A stretch of 64,000 nt of DNA from an uncultured bacterium (GTDB lineage Bacteria > Actinomycetota > Acidimicrobiia > Spongiisociales > ZC4RG35). Of this stretch, positions 261 to 64,000 are shown one piece after another (the first letter of the stretch is position 1; each line of letters starts with the position of its first letter). The DNA lies in assembly GCA_963785075.1 (NCBI GenBank), contig CAWATW010000004.1:338516-402515 (forward strand), read 5' to 3'. The notes under the pieces were generated by a model. That model was not told where the DNA came from and made no database searches. It was given only the letters and a program-made list of their open reading frames with translations. Both the position numbers and the translations under genes were made by a program.

Positions 261-288
261 CGTTCTACGTTCGACGTTCTACCTTCTA
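261..288. repeat. 4 tandem heptamers CGTTCKA (cgttcta cgttcga cgttcta ccttcta) followed by cggaccc, upstream of flgB
   Basis: Direct reading of the sequence. Confidence 0.55.
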
Positions 289-482
289 CGGACCCCAGGC
301 GGCGAGCCAATCCCCTCCCCCCGTCGAACGCTTCGCGTGAAAAGCGTCCTCACCCTTAACCGCGGGCTTGGTCAGTCGACAGGCGTACTCGACAACCGAA
401 TACATGGAAGATTCAACGGCGACAGGGACGAGCGCACGGCGTTCGCCCCTGTCGTTTTCTCGTTTTGGAGGAGCCCAAGTCA

Positions 483-3055: not shown

Positions 3056-4083
3056 TGGCAAACGGCTCTGCGCTTCCTGTCCCGACCGGCCCCCGAGGGG
3101 TGGCCGTCCCCGCACCTCGCCAGCGAGCGGCGGCTCTCGTGCTGGCGATCGGGTCGGGCAAAGCAGCCAACATCCTCGAGCATCTCAGTCCCGACGAGAT
3201 AGCACTCCTCGCGGAGGAGGTCTCCAGCCTCGGCGACATCGACTCGGCGACGCGCAATTCGCTCATGGCGCGCACGCTCAACCACATGATGTCCATCGAT
3301 CCGAGCGAGGAGGCACGACTGCTGAGGATGCGTGCCGATGCCATGAGGGCTGCGGCAGAGCTGGATGAGCTCGGACACTTCGACCCGCACCAGCCCTTTC
3401 GATTCCTCCAGAAGGTGGAGCTCGACCAGGCGGTTCAGTTCCTCGCCAACGAGCACCCTCAGACCGCCGCCGTGATCCTCGCAGCGCAGCCGCCTACCTT
3501 CGCAGCCAAGGTGTTGTCCCACTTCGATCCGACCGAGGCAGGCGACATCTCGCTTCGCATCGCCACCATCGGCAAGACGCCGACCGAGGTCATCCAACGG
3601 ATCGAGCAGGCGATGCGAAAGAACCTCAGCGAAAGCAACGAAGGCGAGGGCGAAACGCGAGACGGACCAAAGGAGCTGGCCGCAATCCTCAACAACGCAG
3701 ATCGCGACATAGAGGAGAAGGTGCTCGCCCATCTCACCTCGTTCGACCAGGAACTCGCCGAACGAGTTCGATCGCTCATGTTCGTCTTCGAGGATGTTCA
3801 GACGCTCGAAGACCGGGCCATCCAGCAGGTACTGCAACAGGTGAACACGAACTCGCTGGCACTTGCCCTGAAAGGCGTCGACGAGGCCGTACGCGACAAG
3901 ATCCTCAACAACCTGTCGGAGCGGGCACGCGAGTCGCTCCTGGAGGAATTCGATCTCCTCGGCGCCGTCCGCAAACAGGACGTCATGGAGGCTCGGACCG
4001 CAATCGTCGCCACCATCCGCTCGCTCGAGGCGAGCGGCCAGATCGTGATCGCAAGAGGAGACGACAGTGAGTTCATCGAATAG
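3055..4083 (+). CDS. fliG: flagellar motor switch protein FliG
   Basis: 342 aa, ..AALVLAIGSGKAANILEHLSPDEIALLAEEV.. and a FliG C-terminal domain. ATG overlaps the fliF TGA. Confidence 0.9.
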   Translation: MANGSALPVPTGPRGVAVPAPRQRAAALVLAIGSGKAANILEHLSPDEIALLAEEVSSLGDIDSATRNSLMARTLNHMMSIDPSEEARLLRMRADAMRAAAELDELGHFDPHQPFRFLQKVELDQAVQFLANEHPQTAAVILAAQPPTFAAKVLSHFDPTEAGDISLRIATIGKTPTEVIQRIEQAMRKNLSESNEGEGETRDGPKELAAILNNADRDIEEKVLAHLTSFDQELAERVRSLMFVFEDVQTLEDRAIQQVLQQVNTNSLALALKGVDEAVRDKILNNLSERARESLLEEFDLLGAVRKQDVMEARTAIVATIRSLEASGQIVIARGDDSEFIE

Positions 4084-4651
4084 CGGTGTCCTTCGTCAGC
4101 CGTTCCTGGCGACCGATCCGCATGTCATGGGGAACGCACACGCCGGGTTCCTCGATCCGACGTTCCTCGAGCACATCGATGAAGCGCGTAGCTCTGGATA
4201 CGACCAGGGCTTCGCAGATGGAGCGAAGGCGGCCGAGGCCGCGGCTCGCCGGTCCGCCGAGGCGGCGGCTCAACGGCTCAGGACTGCCGCCACCGACGCC
4301 GTCGCCCACCTCGCATCCGCGACCGTCGACTTGGTCCCGCAACTGCTCGACGTGGCGATTGCGATCGCACGCAACATCGTCGCCGAGGTGCCGGAGCAGG
4401 TCAGTGCCTCTCTCGGCGATCGGATCGCCGTGGCGCTCTCCCAGATCGACGATGACCGACTGACGATTTCCGTCTCGCCGGGAGATCTCGGCGAGGTGTC
4501 CGCCGGATTCGGGTCGGTTCCCGGACTTACCGTCGTACCCGACGAGGCGCTCGGAGCCGGCGAAGCTCGCATCGACGGTGTCTGGGCCCACGCCGATCTG
4601 ACCATTCCGATGGCGTGGGCCATCGTGGAGGAGAACCTCCGTGGCCGATGA
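4067..4651 (+). CDS. fliH: flagellar export/assembly protein FliH
   Basis: GTG start 7 nt after an AAGAGGAG RBS. FliH-like Ala/Glu-rich coiled region. Sits between fliG and fliI. Confidence 0.7.
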   Translation: MSSSNSGVLRQPFLATDPHVMGNAHAGFLDPTFLEHIDEARSSGYDQGFADGAKAAEAAARRSAEAAAQRLRTAATDAVAHLASATVDLVPQLLDVAIAIARNIVAEVPEQVSASLGDRIAVALSQIDDDRLTISVSPGDLGEVSAGFGSVPGLTVVPDEALGAGEARIDGVWAHADLTIPMAWAIVEENLRGR

Positions 4652-10067: not shown

Positions 10068-10088
10068 GCGAGGAGCGAGGAGCGAGGA
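10068..10088. repeat. (GCGAGGA)x3 tandem heptamers directly 3' of the hairpin
   Basis: gcgagga gcgagga gcgagga. Confidence 0.5.
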
Positions 10089-10371
10089 GCCAGACCCCCG
10101 CCCCTTCCTCGTCGACACCCTTCCCCATCGGCACAGAAGGGGTCGCCCACCCGTCTCAGCACTCACACCGTGGCCCGAAAGGCGGTTTGGCTCCTCGCAG
10201 CGAGCGAAGCGAGCGGCCTCGCCCCTGGCTTTTCGCACTCCAGCCAATGTCCTTACGCGGCTCTAGGACGCGCCGACGGGATCTTTGCAGGGTCGATGGA
10301 CGACCCCGACAGACACACGGAGGTGTCGAAGTGCCTACGCGCACCAGGACAAACAAGAGTGGGGGCTCCCG

Positions 10372-11160
10372 ATGTTGACCATTGGCGGAGTCGTTCTGGT
10401 CCTCGTCGCCATCGTCGTGTCGACGTTGATGGACGGAAACTCATTCGGACCGCTCATCGGGCCCTCTTCTCTCGTGCTCGTGTTCTTCGGTGCGGTCGGC
10501 GCAGGCATGACCGCTTTCGAGATCCCACATCTCGCCGGTATGCCCAAGGCCATGATCAAGGCGTTCACCGGCAAGCCCGCCAACGGCGACCAAGCCGTGA
10601 ACACCATGATGAAGATGGCGGAGGTCGCCCGCCGGGAGGGGGTTCTCGCTCTCGAGGAGAAGCTGAAGGACATCGAGGATCCGTTCCTGCAGCAAGGCCT
10701 GCAACTGGTGGTCGACGGCATGGACACCGAGAACGCTCGGGCGATTCTCGAGACGATGGTCGACTCGGTGGATGCCAGGCACACCACGCAGATCGGATTG
10801 TGGAAGGCGATCGGTGGCTACTGCCCGACGCTCGGGATGATGGGAACCGTCATCGGGCTCATCAACATGCTCGGGAACCTGTCCGACCCCTCTCAGCTCG
10901 GCATCGGCATGTCCCTGGCTCTGCTGACGACTCTGTACGGCGTGTTCTTCTCGAACGTGATCTTCATCCCCGTGGCCAACAAGCTCGAGCAACTCAACAC
11001 TGCCGAGATATCCACCATGAGTCTCATCATCGACGGTGTCCTCGCCATCCAAGCAGGGGCGAGCCCACGCATGCTGGTCGAGCGCCTGGAGGCGTTCCTC
11101 GAGCCGGCGCAGCGCATCGGGCACCACGCCCGGGCGAAAGGCGGGGCGGAGGCCGCCTGA
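10372..11160 (+). CDS. motA: flagellar stator protein MotA
   Basis: 4-TM MotA/TolQ/ExbB fold, ..CPTLGMMGTVIGLINMLGNL.. Confidence 0.85.
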   Translation: MLTIGGVVLVLVAIVVSTLMDGNSFGPLIGPSSLVLVFFGAVGAGMTAFEIPHLAGMPKAMIKAFTGKPANGDQAVNTMMKMAEVARREGVLALEEKLKDIEDPFLQQGLQLVVDGMDTENARAILETMVDSVDARHTTQIGLWKAIGGYCPTLGMMGTVIGLINMLGNLSDPSQLGIGMSLALLTTLYGVFFSNVIFIPVANKLEQLNTAEISTMSLIIDGVLAIQAGASPRMLVERLEAFLEPAQRIGHHARAKGGAEAA

Positions 11161-44650: not shown

Positions 44651-45290
44651 CGGTCACCTCATCGGGGAGCAGGCCGCGTTCTCTTGCGAACTCCCACAAC
44701 GCTCGCTGGAGCGCTTTTCTTCCCCGATGGAGCCGCGACATCACGGTTCCGATCGGGATGTCCAAGATCTCGGCGATCTCCTTGTACGCAAAACCTTCGA
44801 GGTCGGCCAACAGGACCGGGATTCGGAAGTTCTCGGGCAGCGCCTCGACGGCCCGTTTGATGTCGCTCTCGACCAACCCGTCGAGCACCTGGTCTTCGAC
44901 GCTGCGGGCCGCCTCGGCCGACTGCTCGGATCCGAGGCGCCGATAGAGATACAGATCTTCGACCTCACCGAGATCGGTCTCGGTGGGACGACGCGTGTCC
45001 CGTCGGTACTTGTTGATGTAGGTGTTGGTCAGGATGCGATAGAGCCATGCCTTCAGGTTCGTGCCCGCCTCGAACGTGTTGTATGCCCGATAGGCCTTGA
45101 GGTACGTCTCCTGGACGAGGTCCTCGGCATCTGCCGGATTACGAGTCATCCGCATGGCCGCGCTGAACAGCTGCGGTGCATATTCCATCGCATCTCGTTC
45201 GAAGTCGGCCTGGTCTGCCACGGCCGAAACGGTAGCAAGCCCGACATGGCACCAAACCTGGACACTTGGCGCCGGGGGCGCGGGCGCCAT
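44643..45290 (-). CDS. sigH: ECF sigma factor, SigH/SigR-like
   Basis: ..[67 protein letters not shown].. is near-identical in pattern to mycobacterial SigH. Start uncertain (ATG 45290, or downstream in-frame GTGs near 45245/45230). Confidence 0.85.
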
Positions 45291-45299
45291 CGTGGCACC

Positions 45300-45327
45300 A
45301 GGTCCGGAGTCCGAGGTCCGACGTCCG
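45300..45327 (-). repeat. 4 tandem heptamers (reading the - strand: cggacgt cggacct cggactc cggacct) immediately upstream of the sigH ATG at 45290
   Basis: Directly read. Same unit family as the array at 63644-63671. Confidence 0.55.
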
Positions 45328-45419
45328 TCCCGGACCGCCCGCCTGTGCGGCGCCAAGAAGCTCTGGACCGCGGGTTGAGAGGGGTCGGGCGGCGCCCGCT
45401 CATGACCGAATACTGGCTA

Positions 45420-45431
45420 CTGAGTGCTCAG
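45420..45431. promoter_or_regulatory. near-palindrome ctgagtgctcag 20 bp from the tRNA-Thr 3' end
   Basis: Related to the perfect palindrome at 45594-45605. Confidence 0.3.
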
Positions 45432-45452
45432 CGCTGCCGGACGAAGTCCGGC

Positions 45453-45527
45453 TGGAGCCGAGGGGGGGATTTGAACCCCCGACCTACGCATTACGAGTGC
45501 GTTGCTCTACCCCTGAGCTACCCCGGC
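45453..45527 (-). tRNA. tRNA-Thr (anticodon CGU)
   Basis: Reverse complement GCCGGGGTAGCTCAGGGGTAGAGCAACGCACTCGTAATGCGTAGGTCGGGGGTTCAAATCCCCCCCTCGGCTCCA. 7-bp acceptor stem (one G-U pair), D/anticodon/T arms, GTTCAAATC T-loop, genomically encoded CCA. Confidence 0.85.
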
Positions 45528-45589
45528 AGTCGGCCCGCAAGGTTAGTGGGTCCCGACGCCTCGGGAACCAAGGTGTGGTACTCCGCACC

Positions 45590-45605
45590 AGTACTGAGTA
45601 CTCAG
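45590..45605. promoter_or_regulatory. agtactgagtactcag containing the perfect 12-bp palindrome CTGAGTACTCAG, upstream (sense side) of tRNA-Thr
   Basis: Directly read. The 12-mer GTACTGAGTACT recurs at 63479-63490. Confidence 0.35.
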
Positions 45606-45623
45606 CACCAAGTCCTGAGCGTT

Positions 45624-52971: not shown

Positions 52972-52992
52972 GCTCGGCGCATGCGTGTCGAG

Positions 52993-53027
52993 TAATACGT
53001 AATACGTAATACGTAATACGTAATACG
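52993..53027. repeat. (TAATACG)x5 perfect tandem heptamer array in the topA / protease intergenic region
   Basis: Directly read. AT-rich island in a roughly 70% GC background, flanked by cgcatgcg and gtggcg..cgccac palindromes. Confidence 0.8.
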
Positions 53028-53142
53028 TGTGGCGGTTCGCTGTGCGCCACGCACGCATCTCACGGTCTGACGCTCAAGTTTTGACGCCGTCGGGGCCGAT
53101 GCACTTCCCAGAGGTACTCGTCTCACAAAAGGTGCACTTGAC

Positions 53143-54855
53143 GTGTTCGGGGGAATGCGACTGACCGATCGGAGCCGAAGCCGGAGCCGGCTCGCACCGA
53201 TCGTGGCGATCATCGGAATGCTCATCGCGGTGGTTCCCGCCTCGGCACCGCGGGTTGAAACGATGCATCAGGTGATCGTGCGTGCCGACTCTGCGATGCT
53301 CGATGTCGTCCGTCGCAACGTGGAGTCGCTGGGCGGCGTCATCGTCCGCGACCTTTCGATCATCAACGGTTTCGCAGCACGAGTGCCGGCGGGACTCGAT
53401 GCCGCATCGTTGCCCGGAGTCACCGAGGTGACCACCGACGGTCGCATCGAGCTGTCCTCGTCTCGAGCCGGGGGCGGGTACACGTCGATGCGGACCCTGA
53501 CCGACCGCGTGCTCGATGTCGATCGGCTCTGGGCGCGAGGGATCACGGGTGCCGGCGTGGGTGTCGCCCTGATCGACACGGGTGTGACGCCTGTGGGCGG
53601 GCTCGACGGAGACGGAAAGATCGTGAACGGTCCCGACCTGTCCTTCGACGCCGAATTCGAGAACCTCAGGTGGCTCGACATGTACGGGCACGGAACCCAC
53701 CTGGCGGGCATCATCGCGGGCGAGGACCCTCAGTTCTCACCACGCAGCAGCCGCCGCAACGTGTTCGCCGGGGTGGCACCTGAGGCCCAGATCGTCAACG
53801 TCAAAGTGGCAGACGCCACCGGGACCGCCGACGTCTCGCAGGTCATAGCCGGAATCCAGTGGGTTGTGGACCACAAGGACGACGGTCCGGTCGACATCAG
53901 GGTGTTGACGCTGGCGTTCGGAACCGATGGCACGCAGGCCTACACACTCGATCCGCTCGCTCACGCCGCCGAAGTGGCGTGGCACGAGGGCATCGTGGTC
54001 GTTGTCGCCGCCGGCAACGACGCTGCCGCACGGCCACTCCGCAACCCGGCCACGGACCCCTACGTGATCGCGGTGGGAGCGCTGGACCCCGCCAACAGCT
54101 CGAAGGTGTCGGATGATCGGCTGTTGGCGTTCTCGAACTGCGGCACCGCCGAACGCTCCGTGGATGTTCTTGCGCCGGGTAGATCCATCGCCAGTCTCCG
54201 AGTCGGAGGCTCCTTCATCGACGATCAGTACCCGGAGGCACGCACAGGTCGCCGGTACTTCCGGGGCACAGGAACGTCACAGGCCGCGGCGGTCGTGTCT
54301 GGAGCAGCAGCATTGTTGATCGACCAACGGCCCGATCTGACTCCAGATCAGGTCAAGGAGTTGCTGACCGAATCGGCACGCACCGTTGCGAGCGCCGGCG
54401 GAGCCTGCGCGCAAGCCGGATCTCTCGACGTTCGCCGAGCGTCGGCGAGTCCCACGCCCACCGTGGCTCAGGACTTCGACCGGTCTGACGGATCGGGATC
54501 ATTGGAGGCCGCTCGAGGGTCGTACCACGTGTCACACGACGGCATCGTTCTCGAAGGCGAGATCGACGTCACTGGAGGCACCTGGAGCGGAGGCACCTGG
54601 TCCGGAGGCACCTGGTCAGGAGGCACCTGGTCCGGAGGCACCTGGCGGAGGCCCTCAGGAGGCACCTGGTCCGGAGGCACCTGGAGCGGAGGCACCTGGT
54701 CCGGAGGCACCTGGTCCGGAGGCACCTGGTCCGGAGGCACCTGGAGCGGAGGCACCTGGTCCGGAGGCACCTGGTCCGGAGGCACCTGGAGCGGAGGCAC
54801 GTGGTCCGGAGGCACCTGGTCAGGGAGCACCTGGTCGGGTGCCCGATGGCGGTGA
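53143..54855 (+). CDS. secreted subtilisin-like serine protease (S8) with a C-terminal array of about 18 GGTWS pentapeptide repeats
   Basis: Signal peptide, catalytic triad contexts ..GVGVALIDTGV.. (Asp), ..HGTHLAGIIAG.. (His), ..GTGTSQAAAVVSGAAALL.. (Ser). C-term TGGTWSGGTWSGGTWS..WRRPSGGTWS(x12)..GSTWSGARWR. Confidence 0.85.
   Translation: MFGGMRLTDRSRSRSRLAPIVAIIGMLIAVVPASAPRVETMHQVIVRADSAMLDVVRRNVESLGGVIVRDLSIINGFAARVPAGLDAASLPGVTEVTTDGRIELSSSRAGGGYTSMRTLTDRVLDVDRLWARGITGAGVGVALIDTGVTPVGGLDGDGKIVNGPDLSFDAEFENLRWLDMYGHGTHLAGIIAGEDPQFSPRSSRRNVFAGVAPEAQIVNVKVADATGTADVSQVIAGIQWVVDHKDDGPVDIRVLTLAFGTDGTQAYTLDPLAHAAEVAWHEGIVVVVAAGNDAAARPLRNPATDPYVIAVGALDPANSSKVSDDRLLAFSNCGTAERSVDVLAPGRSIASLRVGGSFIDDQYPEARTGRRYFRGTGTSQAAAVVSGAAALLIDQRPDLTPDQVKELLTESARTVASAGGACAQAGSLDVRRASASPTPTVAQDFDRSDGSGSLEAARGSYHVSHDGIVLEGEIDVTGGTWSGGTWSGGTWSGGTWSGGTWRRPSGGTWSGGTWSGGTWSGGTWSGGTWSGGTWSGGTWSGGTWSGGTWSGGTWSGGTWSGSTWSGARWR
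54574..54837 (+). repeat. about 17.6 tandem copies of a 15-bp unit ggaggcacctggwsc encoding GGTWS, in two blocks (5 + 12) separated by a variant unit
   Basis: Directly read. The long antisense ORF 54468-56204 (PDQVPP repeats) is its shadow. Confidence 0.9.
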
Positions 54856-62173: not shown

Positions 62174-63400
62174 TCAAGCCCTTTCGAGGTGAGGCGCCAG
62201 CGAATAATCGGCGAGCATCGGTCCGGTCGGCGGGAGCGCAATGTGGGTGACCGAGCTGTTGAGCGCCACTCCCAGATCGCGGTTGATGTCGTTCCCACGC
62301 TGTTGGAACCCGGCGATGGTGGCACGGATCGCCGCTCCGTGCGACACCACGATCGTTCGGTCGGCGGCCTCGAACTGAAGCGCCCGGAGGAACCGGGTCA
62401 TTCGCTCCGCCACCTCGGCAAAGGACTCCCCGGTGTGTCCGCGACGAAGGTCTTCGCCGTCCCGATAGATCCTGACTGCCTCCTCCTGATCGGAGAACTC
62501 CGATCCCTTGAGGCCCTCCCACTCGCCAAAGGCCATTTCCATGACCTCGGGAGCGGGCTCGACGTGACGGCCGAAGGCCGCGGCCGTTTCCATCGCCCGC
62601 TGAAGCGGCGACGAGATGAGGCGGTCCGGTCTCGGATACCACGTGGCCAGGCCGACGGCCTGAGCGTGGCCTTCCTCGTCGAGACCCCAGCAACTCTGCC
62701 CTTGGACCCGGCCCTCCTTGTTCGCCGTCGTGACCCCGTGCCGAACGAAGGCCACGACGGGGATGCCGTCCGAGCGCATCCGGCCCAGGAACCCGACATC
62801 CACGCCGAGATGGGTGGCATCGTTGAAGACGGCGAGTCGCATCGTATCCGGCGTGCCTTCGAGCACCGTGAGCGATGTGTTCGTGACGATGGGAAACGTC
62901 CTCCGGTCCGGAAGCCGGCCGAGAAACCGGCCGACGATCGAATCGATCACACCCCCGTGAGTGGCGACCAAGGCGCTCTCTCCGTCACCAAGCCGATGCA
63001 CGAGGGCGTCGAACGCATCGAGCGACCGACGCTCGAAATCGGCGATCGTCTCGCCCGAGGCGCCAAACGCCACGGCCTCGCCAGACCGGATCGCCTGGAG
63101 GAGATCGGGGTGCTTGGCCACCACCTGTTCGAAACGTTGCCCTTCCCACTCCCCGAGATCCATCTCCCGCCATGCGTGATCGACCTCAGGGTCCCCATCG
63201 ATGGCCTGCGCCGTCTCGAGGGCCCGATCGAGGTCGGAGGACAACACGACGTCGAAGCTACGACCGTTCAGGCGGACGCCGACGGCCTCTGCTTGCCTTC
63301 GGCCCTCTGCGGACAGAGGAGCGTTGCCCTGCCCCTGCCATATGTTCGCCTCGTTGGCCTCTGAGCGCCCGTGACGTACAAGCGTGATACGGATCGACAT
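62174..63400 (-). CDS. tandem histidine-phosphatase (phosphoglycerate mutase family) two-domain protein
   Basis: Two RHG motifs: ..ITLVRHGRSEAN.. and ..VVAFVRHGVTTAN.. Start at MSIRITL (63400). Confidence 0.75.
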   Translation of the reverse strand: MSIRITLVRHGRSEANEANIWQGQGNAPLSAEGRRQAEAVGVRLNGRSFDVVLSSDLDRALETAQAIDGDPEVDHAWREMDLGEWEGQRFEQVVAKHPDLLQAIRSGEAVAFGASGETIADFERRSLDAFDALVHRLGDGESALVATHGGVIDSIVGRFLGRLPDRRTFPIVTNTSLTVLEGTPDTMRLAVFNDATHLGVDVGFLGRMRSDGIPVVAFVRHGVTTANKEGRVQGQSCWGLDEEGHAQAVGLATWYPRPDRLISSPLQRAMETAAAFGRHVEPAPEVMEMAFGEWEGLKGSEFSDQEEAVRIYRDGEDLRRGHTGESFAEVAERMTRFLRALQFEAADRTIVVSHGAAIRATIAGFQQRGNDINRDLGVALNSSVTHIALPPTGPMLADYSLAPHLERA

Positions 63401-63478
63401 GAGGGCCTGAGGATATGACCTTTGCGAGCGTGCGCAGCTCAAACTCACCGGGCGGCGGAGTTACCGGTACCGAGTCTC

Positions 63479-63493
63479 GTACTGAGTACTGAG
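63479..63493. promoter_or_regulatory. gtactgagtactgag motif (shares the 12-mer GTACTGAGTACT with 45591-45602)
   Basis: Directly read. Confidence 0.3.
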
Positions 63494-63643
63494 ATCCGGA
63501 CCGGAGCGGAGAAGCCGGGGCTCATTCGGCCCCGGTCCCGAGCAACAATCCTGCCGTCCGACGCCGCGTCCGACGTCCGGACCACCCCACCCACGGTCCG
63601 TCCAACGCCTGCCGCCCGACCCCGGGTCCGACGTCCGCACGCG

Positions 63644-63671
63644 TCGGACCTCGGACCTCGGACTTCGGACC
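63644..63671 (+). repeat. 4 tandem heptamers tcggacc tcggacc tcggact tcggacc, preceded by a 9-bp-stem inverted repeat ggtccgacg-N8-cgtcggacc
   Basis: Directly read. The whole 63540-63675 region is built from GTCCGAC/GTCGGAC units in both orientations. Confidence 0.6.
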
Positions 63672-63699
63672 CGAGACGATGCCTTTCGCTACCAGATTG

Positions 63700-64000
63700 T
63701 CAGCCGATGAAGGCCGAGGCGAAGATCAGCGACACGATCGTCATCACCTTGATGACGATGTTCATCGACGGACCGGACGTGTCCTTGAACGGGTCACCGA
63801 CGGTGTCGCCGATCACAGCGGCCTTGTGCGGGTCCGAGCCTTTGCCGCCGTGATGTCCGCTCTCGATGTACTTCTTGGCGTTGTCCCATGCGCCACCGGC
63901 GTTGGCCATGTAGATGGCCAGAAGGAAGCCCGTGACGAGGGCACCGGCCAGGAAGCCTCCGAGGGCTTCCACGTCGATGAATCCGATCACGAGTGGGAAG
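63700..64000 (-). CDS. hppA: K+/Na+-insensitive type H+-translocating pyrophosphatase, C-terminal part (the gene continues past the window end)
   Basis: ..[12 protein letters not shown].., ..[19 protein letters not shown].. conserved V-PPase C-terminal motifs. Confidence 0.85.

Follow-up and report, generated by a model that had tools for sequence, protein, structure and literature searches.

The intergenic spacer between the genes for a membrane pyrophosphatase (hppA) and a tandem histidine phosphatase carries a dense cluster of short repeats at 63461-63675, which raises the question of whether these repeats make up a defined element, present in a second copy near a sigma factor gene, or belong to a repeat class already known from bacteria. 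We addressed this question in a 64-kb stretch of DNA (the window, whose coordinates are used unless another locus is named) and in about 80 kb of sequence from relatives; the recurrence of repeats was judged from these two sets, and statements about whole genomes are extrapolations from them. The window has a G+C content of 65%, and the closest named relatives of its proteins come from Acidimicrobiia MAGs. We consider it likely that the region represents clustered heptanucleotide simple-sequence repeats, of the long SSR or STRR-like class, situated in the hppA/phosphatase spacer and with the origin proposed below. The flagged cluster is no new kind of element; it adds a case to a class of repeats that has long been known from bacteria.

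Repeat architecture of the hppA/phosphatase spacer

The flagged region lies inside a 298-bp spacer that extends from the stop codon of hppA to the start codon of the phosphatase gene, both genes being on the minus strand, and Pfam assigns H_PPase and His_Phos_1 domains to orthologues of their products. Read along the transcribed strand, the hppA stop is followed by 25-29 nt of unrelated sequence, a (GGTCCGA)x4 array that pairs with an inverted copy, and a G-rich segment of GTCGGAC units; then come a G+C hairpin, a block containing CTCAGTACTCAGTAC, about 60 nt of unrelated sequence and the phosphatase ATG. The closest comparison is with L127 and L128, the hppA-phosphatase loci of two assemblies whose phosphatase is 95% identical to that of the window. 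The features of the spacer are as follows.

63700-63702, minus strand: stop codon of hppA (membrane pyrophosphatase)
63644-63671, minus strand: four-unit heptamer array (TRF period 7, 4.0 copies, 90% matches, score 49; repeat family D3)
63623-63673, minus strand: long imperfect hairpin in which the array pairs with an inverted GTCCGAC GTCCG copy (inverted repeats I1 and I10)
63625-63633 and 63642-63650: perfect 9-bp stem GGTCCGACG/CGTCGGACC with an 8-nt loop, the core of the 63623-63673 hairpin
63550-63582 and 63608-63640: 33-nt direct repeat of GTCCGAC units in two copies, 88% identical (family D1)
63568-63641, minus strand: 74-nt core, G-rich on this strand and unusually conserved between strains
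63555-63579: (CGTCCGA)x3.9 (TRF)
63515-63535, minus strand: G+C hairpin CCGGGGC/GCCCCGG (inverted repeat I19), kept in the alignment with L127 and L128
63467-63493, plus strand: degenerate four-unit GTACTGA array (GTACCGA GT-CTC GTACTGA GTACTGA G)
63462-63515: 54-nt strain-specific block with GTACTGA units (alignment columns 241-294, all gaps in L127 and L128)
63400-63398, minus strand: ATG of the histidine phosphatase, a 408-aa protein with two histidine-phosphatase domains

The four-unit array begins 29 nt past the hppA stop, and its unit reads TCGGACC on the plus strand and GGTCCGA on the transcribed minus strand. The last two units of the degenerate GTACTGA array (63479-63493) form the 15-mer GTACTGAGTACTGAG, for which we found 3 matches with up to 2 mismatches, against 0.04 expected. 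This 15-mer, the (TCGGACC)x4 array and the 9-bp stem are all present in the spacer where the first-pass annotation had placed them. Its description of the region as built almost entirely from GTCCGAC/GTCGGAC units holds for 63550-63675, where GTCCGA/TCGGAC-like units (at most 1 mismatch) cover 60% of the sequence, but overstates the case for 63461-63549, where they cover 20% against a window background of 10%.

Strain variation and the heptamer repeat class

Over the phosphatase gene, the window differs from L127 and L128 by about 9% in DNA and by 21% at third codon positions. The spacer is homologous in all three and has lengths of 298, 261 and 280 bp (window, L127 and L128, respectively), with indels on the scale of the repeat unit. 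In L127 and L128, a single GTCCGAG unit and some shorter indels set the array behind the hppA stop apart from that of the window, and both loci lack the 54-nt block at 63462-63515 while retaining GTCCGA arrays; they also carry a further array, (CGGACCT)x4.7. L127 and L128 have different arrays although the gene is 99.9% identical between them, a difference that may be a sequencing error in L128. This locus and L130 lie on contig_23858 of ENA ERZ25039603, where many genes are split, topA falling into three pieces and holB being cut short; such breaks suggest indel errors, so repeat lengths in L128 and L130 are to be read cautiously. In relatives at 68-72% identity, the orthologous spacer measures 69-97 bp and contains a plain hairpin and no arrays. 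Because the arrays vary among the 95% strains and are missing at 68-72%, the repeat cluster is, judging from these alignments, a recent gain of one species-level clade that is still changing. The hppA spacer offers a natural series, from no arrays (68-72%) through variable unit number (95%) to one strain with an inserted module.

Further arrays of 7-nt units occur elsewhere in the window, with unrelated units (CGTTCTA, GCGAGGA and GTAATAC):

261-290, plus strand: (CGTTCTA)x4.3, intergenic (TRF)
10068-10090, plus strand: (GCGAGGA)x3.3, intergenic, after a hairpin; the unit is also found in L131, a relative with 88% identical holB
52992-53028, plus strand: (GTAATAC)x5.3, 21 nt past the topA stop (TRF); of the same class as the hppA-spacer repeats, expanded only in the window

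At the topA-downstream site, the (GTAATAC)x5.3 array of the window contrasts with a single ACGTATT and one inverted GTAATAC in L129 and L130, the sigma/tRNA-side loci of the 95% relatives. Counting arrays of 2.8 copies or more, the window contains 5 of period 7 and a sixth that was scored as period 14, compared with a mean of 0.42 in 40 dinucleotide-preserving shuffles, and its 64 kb contain no such array of period 5 or period 8. All of these period-7 arrays lie between ORFs. In the window and its relatives (a small sample), arrays often sit 6-40 nt past stop codons, and arrays at related Acidimicrobiia loci are mostly of period 7.

The same preference extends well beyond this lineage. A scan for GTCCGNN x4 in one genome per species gave at least 120 loci (L007-L126), and the matches listed come from Verrucomicrobia, Planctomycetes, Acidobacteria, Chloroflexi, Streptomyces, Anabaena, Acidimicrobiia and others. 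Among the matches listed, many adjoin other heptamer arrays, and about 15 consist of an array and an inverted array, the architecture seen in the hppA spacer. The listed loci (853 kb) hold 232 period-7 arrays, compared with 17 of period 8 and 4 of period 6.

Bacterial heptamer repeats have been on record since 1990, and work from 2007 showed them to be the favoured class of long SSRs. In that survey, heptamers were over-represented above all other long SSRs in many bacteria and were the most abundant long SSR in most genomes, with polymerase slippage proposed as the cause (Mrazek, Guo & Shah 2007, as cited in PMC4679880 and PMC4692102). In Xanthomonas, inverted heptamer pairs have been described, together with length differences between close strains (Rehm et al. 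2015, PMC4692102). The arrays described here share with heptanucleotide long SSRs and cyanobacterial STRRs their tandem 7-nt units in 2-6 or more copies, their intergenic position, the favouring of period 7, the presence of several units per genome and strain-variable arrays. They consist of head-to-tail copies of 7-nt units (4.0, 3.9 and a degenerate 4 copies in the hppA spacer), show the period-7 excess across 64 kb, lie between genes and are polymorphic between strains (with L128 and L130 being error-prone); between strains about 9% diverged in DNA, they differ in unit number, in presence and in type of unit. They differ from the described systems in their Acidimicrobiia host and in their units, namely GTCCGAN, AGTACTG, TAATACG, GCGAGGA and CGTTCTA; the literature that we searched yielded no description of these five units or of heptamer repeats in Acidimicrobiia. 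The GGGAATC/GGGGAYT repeats of Xanthomonas and Nostoc (PMC4692102) are likewise intergenic heptamers, with some inverted pairs capable of forming stem-loops, and they also vary in length and sequence at the same locus in close relatives. Those units were chosen for their quadruplex potential and are G-tract repeats, whereas the units here are not, and the 74-nt core alone is G-rich.

We propose that replication slippage, favoured when the unit is 7 nt long, would create and alter arrays of this class, and that the inverted copies would come from template switching. The same few units would then be re-seeded at different spacers, possibly by ectopic recombination, and most repeat change would be tolerated because it falls in a 3′ flank or spacer. 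The array hairpins, together with the conserved G+C stem-loop, would provide a candidate 3′-end structure for the hppA transcript.

Conservation and predicted structure of the spacer RNA

The 74-nt core behaves differently from its surroundings: 71 of its 74 positions (96%) are identical to those of L127, compared with differences of 12-21% at third codon positions of the flanking genes and 75-82% identity in the neighbouring spacer. Conservation above that of synonymous sites hints at selection on the core. The core was seen only in the hppA spacer of the close clade, and among the sequences compared we found neither a second copy of it nor a source copy of the 54-nt block beyond array-level matches. 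Its minus strand carries a series of G-runs (GGGG..GGG..GGG.GGGG), and it may form a quadruplex or a structured RNA.

RNA structure prediction for an hppA terminator, proposed in the first-pass annotation as a check, gave a divided answer: the hairpins fold weakly better than shuffled sequences (z -1.5 to -3.1), but they do not form a U-tract terminator. The 63623-63673 hairpin has a predicted folding energy of -34.1 kcal/mol (z -1.95), and its equivalent in L127 reaches z -3.06; the G+C hairpin at 63515-63535 scores z -1.5 in the window and -2.9 in L127. The spacer as a whole folds no better than shuffles (z -1.38), and neither does the 74-nt core alone (z -0.56). A scan of 63300-63800 returned 0 sites for a consensus sigma-70 promoter or a U-tract terminator, and stems are present with no T run after them. 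Actinobacterial terminators often lack a U tract, so a terminator function of the hairpins is still possible: the G+C hairpin is a candidate 3′-end or terminator stem-loop of hppA of the kind without a U tract, and a hairpin or terminator role for the hppA transcript is possible on these fold predictions.

A stronger reading would make the spacer the seat of a selected structured RNA, such as a stabiliser or terminator in the hppA 3′ UTR, or a small RNA with the 74-nt core at its centre, for which the repeats merely supplied building material. The conservation of the core relative to synonymous sites fits such a reading, as do the retention in L127 of both the outer stem of the array hairpin and the G+C hairpin, and the common position of arrays shortly past stop codons in the window and its relatives. 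Nonetheless, we regard a selected RNA as unlikely: Rfam matched nothing in 63350-63750 at E<=1 (its one match in the window is a tRNA-Thr), the core folds no better than its shuffles, the structure is missing from the orthologous spacers of the 68-72% relatives, and the comparison covers three near-identical sequences.

The sigma/tRNA locus and the recurrence of heptamer modules

A second locus, flanked by holB and by an ECF sigma gene with a zf-HC2 anti-sigma gene after it, carries units of the same two types and had led the first-pass annotation to describe the hppA spacer as a second copy of one composite element that mirrors it. Its features are as follows.

45300-45327, plus strand: (AGGTCCG)x4, upstream of the ECF sigma gene (TRF); the second GTCCGAN array in the window
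45418-45432: near-palindromic copy TACTGAGTGCTCAGC, across tRNA-Thr from the GTACT block, with the core CTGAGTGCTCAG at 45420-45431 (family D1, inverted repeat I1)
45453-45527, minus strand: tRNA-Thr(CGT) (Rfam match)
45578-45622: GTACT block downstream of holB, containing GTACTGAGTACTCAG (45591-45605) and the perfect 12-bp palindrome CTGAGTACTCAG (45594-45605)

The likeness between the two loci is real in that GTCCGAN and GTACTGA units are present at both, in opposite order and orientation, but their similarity is short. Pairwise comparison of the spacers aligned 32 nt of array (87.5% identity between the 45300-45327 array and 63640-63671) and about 38 nt around the GTACT motif (76%), and nothing longer. 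Each module has counterparts in other genomes. The 45300-45327 array and its flank are 94% identical over 54 nt to L131 3021-3074, and the GTACTGA array at 63467-63493 is 80% identical over 40 nt to the (AGTACTG)x4.3 array and flank of L131 and 95% identical over 22-23 nt to three metagenome loci (L135-L137). In L131, holB is followed by (AGTACTG)x4.3, 50 nt and (AGGTCCG)x4; this locus also has a GTACTNG array, an AGCGAGG array and, at the contig end, a second AGGTCCG array. The short-read contig of L131 ends inside this second (AGGTCCG)x4 module (3254-3297). Heptamer repeats would, as the data suggest, break short-read assemblies and could hide arrays in many MAGs.

The mirror-image orientation of the two loci is explained by an inversion of about 315 bp. 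The tRNA-Thr gene is on the strand opposite to holB in L129, L130 and L132 and co-oriented with holB in the window. In BLAST comparisons, L129 and L130 match 45455-45579 in the opposite orientation, and L131 does so for 45285-45338 and 45434-45454, while the holB and sigma flanks of the inverted segment stay collinear with the relatives. Judged by these alignments, the window carries a strain-specific inversion (roughly 45261-45579), and a short imperfect inverted repeat, ACACTTGG/CCAAGGTGT, lies at its borders. The inverted cassette comprises the promoter region, the tRNA-Thr(CGT) gene, a terminator hairpin and the AGGTCCG array, and its comparison sites are L129 11109-11233, L130 10746-10872 and L132 6425-6497. 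GTACT palindromes lie at or near the inversion junctions. At this locus the 95% relatives have neither module and carry a (TAATACG) array instead. In L129, (TAATACG)x4.7 at 11035-11073 overlaps the holB stop, and the window has no array there; the C-terminus of holB in L129 is altered by the array, ending in …LATNT* as opposed to …LANA*, and the protein is one residue longer.

The series in the hppA spacer is accompanied in the same lineage by an array that grew out of one proto-unit (downstream of topA) and by a tRNA cassette that is inverted and has repeats at its borders. The birth, expansion and re-seeding of heptamer arrays can be compared within one lineage, and no new kind of system is revealed by them.

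Local slippage alone does not account for every observation. Similarity in the flanks, together with units that recur at several loci, is not predicted by pure local slippage, and some copying of modules between spacers has likely taken place, as far as these similarities indicate. In the flanks, the spacing between CATCGT and the GTCCG array is constant across both window loci and L131, and AGA(T)CCGGA follows the GTACTGA array at the hppA locus and in L131. A bolder proposal is that heptamer modules (AGTACTG, GTCCGAN, TAATACG and GCGAGGA) are actively propagated in this Acidimicrobiia lineage by a sequence-specific process, such as a binding protein, a recombinase or templated synthesis, that they act as 3′-end or 5′-UTR elements and that they drive rearrangements such as the inversion of the tRNA-Thr cassette. 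We hold this to be distinctly unlikely; if true, active propagation would place these modules beside the unexplained TAACTGA and STRR networks as their high-G+C equivalent.

The TAACTGA network also suggests a narrower model. Dispersed TAACTGA direct repeats have been described in marine Beggiatoaceae, cyanobacteria and Bacteroidetes, and a function in translation control has been proposed for them (MacGregor 2015, PMC4679880). The arrays of the window could, by analogy, be binding sites of a sequence-specific protein, acting as operators or post-transcriptionally, and form an actinobacterial analogue of the TAACTGA repeats. The ACTGA core common to GTACTGA and TAACTGA, the perfect palindrome CTGAGTACTCAG and the recurrence of the same units across loci are in keeping with a binding site, and one metagenome locus (L134) has an AGTACT array close to rplX in a ribosomal protein operon, a parallel to the arrangement reported in PMC4679880. 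The likeness to TAACTGA repeats further includes intergenic arrays of 2-6 units, occurrence at many loci, ribosomal protein operons among them (L134), and unexplained dispersal. However, the unit here is GTACTGA or AGTACTG, which PMC4679880 does not mention, and the GTACTGA units of the window stand in reverse orientation about 78 nt from the phosphatase ATG; a TAACTGA-like forward array just upstream of a start codon is found in 1 of the 5 metagenome matches (L134), orientation and distance to the gene vary among these matches, and the GTACTGA block is dispensable in close strains. Moreover, these genomes contain numerous unrelated heptamer units side by side, a diversity that speaks against a single dedicated binder. 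We therefore view the protein-binding model as highly doubtful. In L134 itself, the AGTACT-type array (4241-4290, minus strand) ends 17 nt before the start of rplX (L24), directly before a GGAGG ribosome-binding site. In two other metagenome loci, L133 (3872-4075) and L137 (3149-3682), pairs of opposed AGTACTG arrays bracket 150-420 bp of non-coding sequence, which in L137 includes (AGCCGAA)x5.9.

Equally small is the chance that both window loci represent copies of a single small composite mobile element (MITE, REP or BIME-like) that combines a GTACT with a GTCCGA module and relies for its movement on a transposase whose gene lies elsewhere. Both modules are present at both window loci and in L131, slight similarity continues beyond the arrays into the flanks, the GTACT block at the hppA locus is a clean 54-nt indel relative to the close strains, and a module GTACTNAGTACTGAGA(N)CCGGA occurs in 5 unrelated metagenome contigs compared with about 0.3 chance matches by our own estimate. 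Yet the homology between the loci is limited to the two short stretches given above, and the two loci show no terminal inverted repeats or target-site duplications that would delimit a unit, nor the shared ends and several full-length copies expected of a MITE. The modules are also present or absent independently: the hppA spacer of the 95% clade keeps GTCCGA without GTACT, and the sigma/tRNA locus of that clade has neither. Furthermore, GTACTSAGTACT has 0 occurrences among the at least 120 GTCCG-array loci listed, a general coupling of GTACT with GTCCG arrays is absent from the 126 loci compared, and the five metagenome contigs with AGTACTG arrays (L133-L137) have other heptamer arrays and no GTCCG array nearby. 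Since GTACT and GTCCGA modules are gained and lost independently, the spacer is not a second copy of one composite element, contrary to the first-pass annotation.

REP and BIME (REPIN) sequences of enterobacteria and pseudomonads resemble the arrays in being short intergenic palindromic or inverted modules that form mosaic clusters downstream of genes, with hairpins that may stabilise the upstream mRNA and with variation between strains. Palindromes of this general kind are present in the window (CTGAGTACTCAG and the GTCCGAC hairpins). REPs, however, are defined imperfect palindromes of 20-40 nt linked to a RAYT, in contrast to the 7-nt tandem arrays here, and the sequence examined contained no RAYT gene and no defined unit; Pfam calls over about 60 kb of syntenic sequence from relatives returned no transposase or integrase. 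A composite transposon or island bounded by the two loci was rejected, as the intervening 18 kb consists of core genes (holB, tmk, topA, GGDEF-EAL, PhoH and others), has the same gene order as in L127 and L129 and contains no integrase or transposase. A CRISPR array was likewise rejected, the units being 7 nt long and contiguous rather than repeats of 23-50 nt with unique spacers.

Finally, a chance artefact of low complexity or composition has practically no likelihood, even though G+C makes up 65% of the genome and words resembling GTCCG are frequent in it, given that GTCCG/CGGAC reaches a local density of 11 per 120 bp compared with a window mean of 0.47, that shuffle tests exclude chance, and that the arrays are reproduced in independent assemblies, one of them short-read. 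The first-pass annotation had named a low-complexity artefact lacking recurrence as the outcome that would undo its claim; both unit types recur in relatives and are therefore no artefact of composition, and both belong to the recurring repertoire of the lineage.

Apart from the heptamers, the window contains at 54574-54836 an array of a 15-bp unit, GGAGGCACCTGGTCC x17.9, near the 3′ end of an S8 peptidase gene and upstream of the GGDEF-EAL gene, and a period-15 array is also present in L127-L130.
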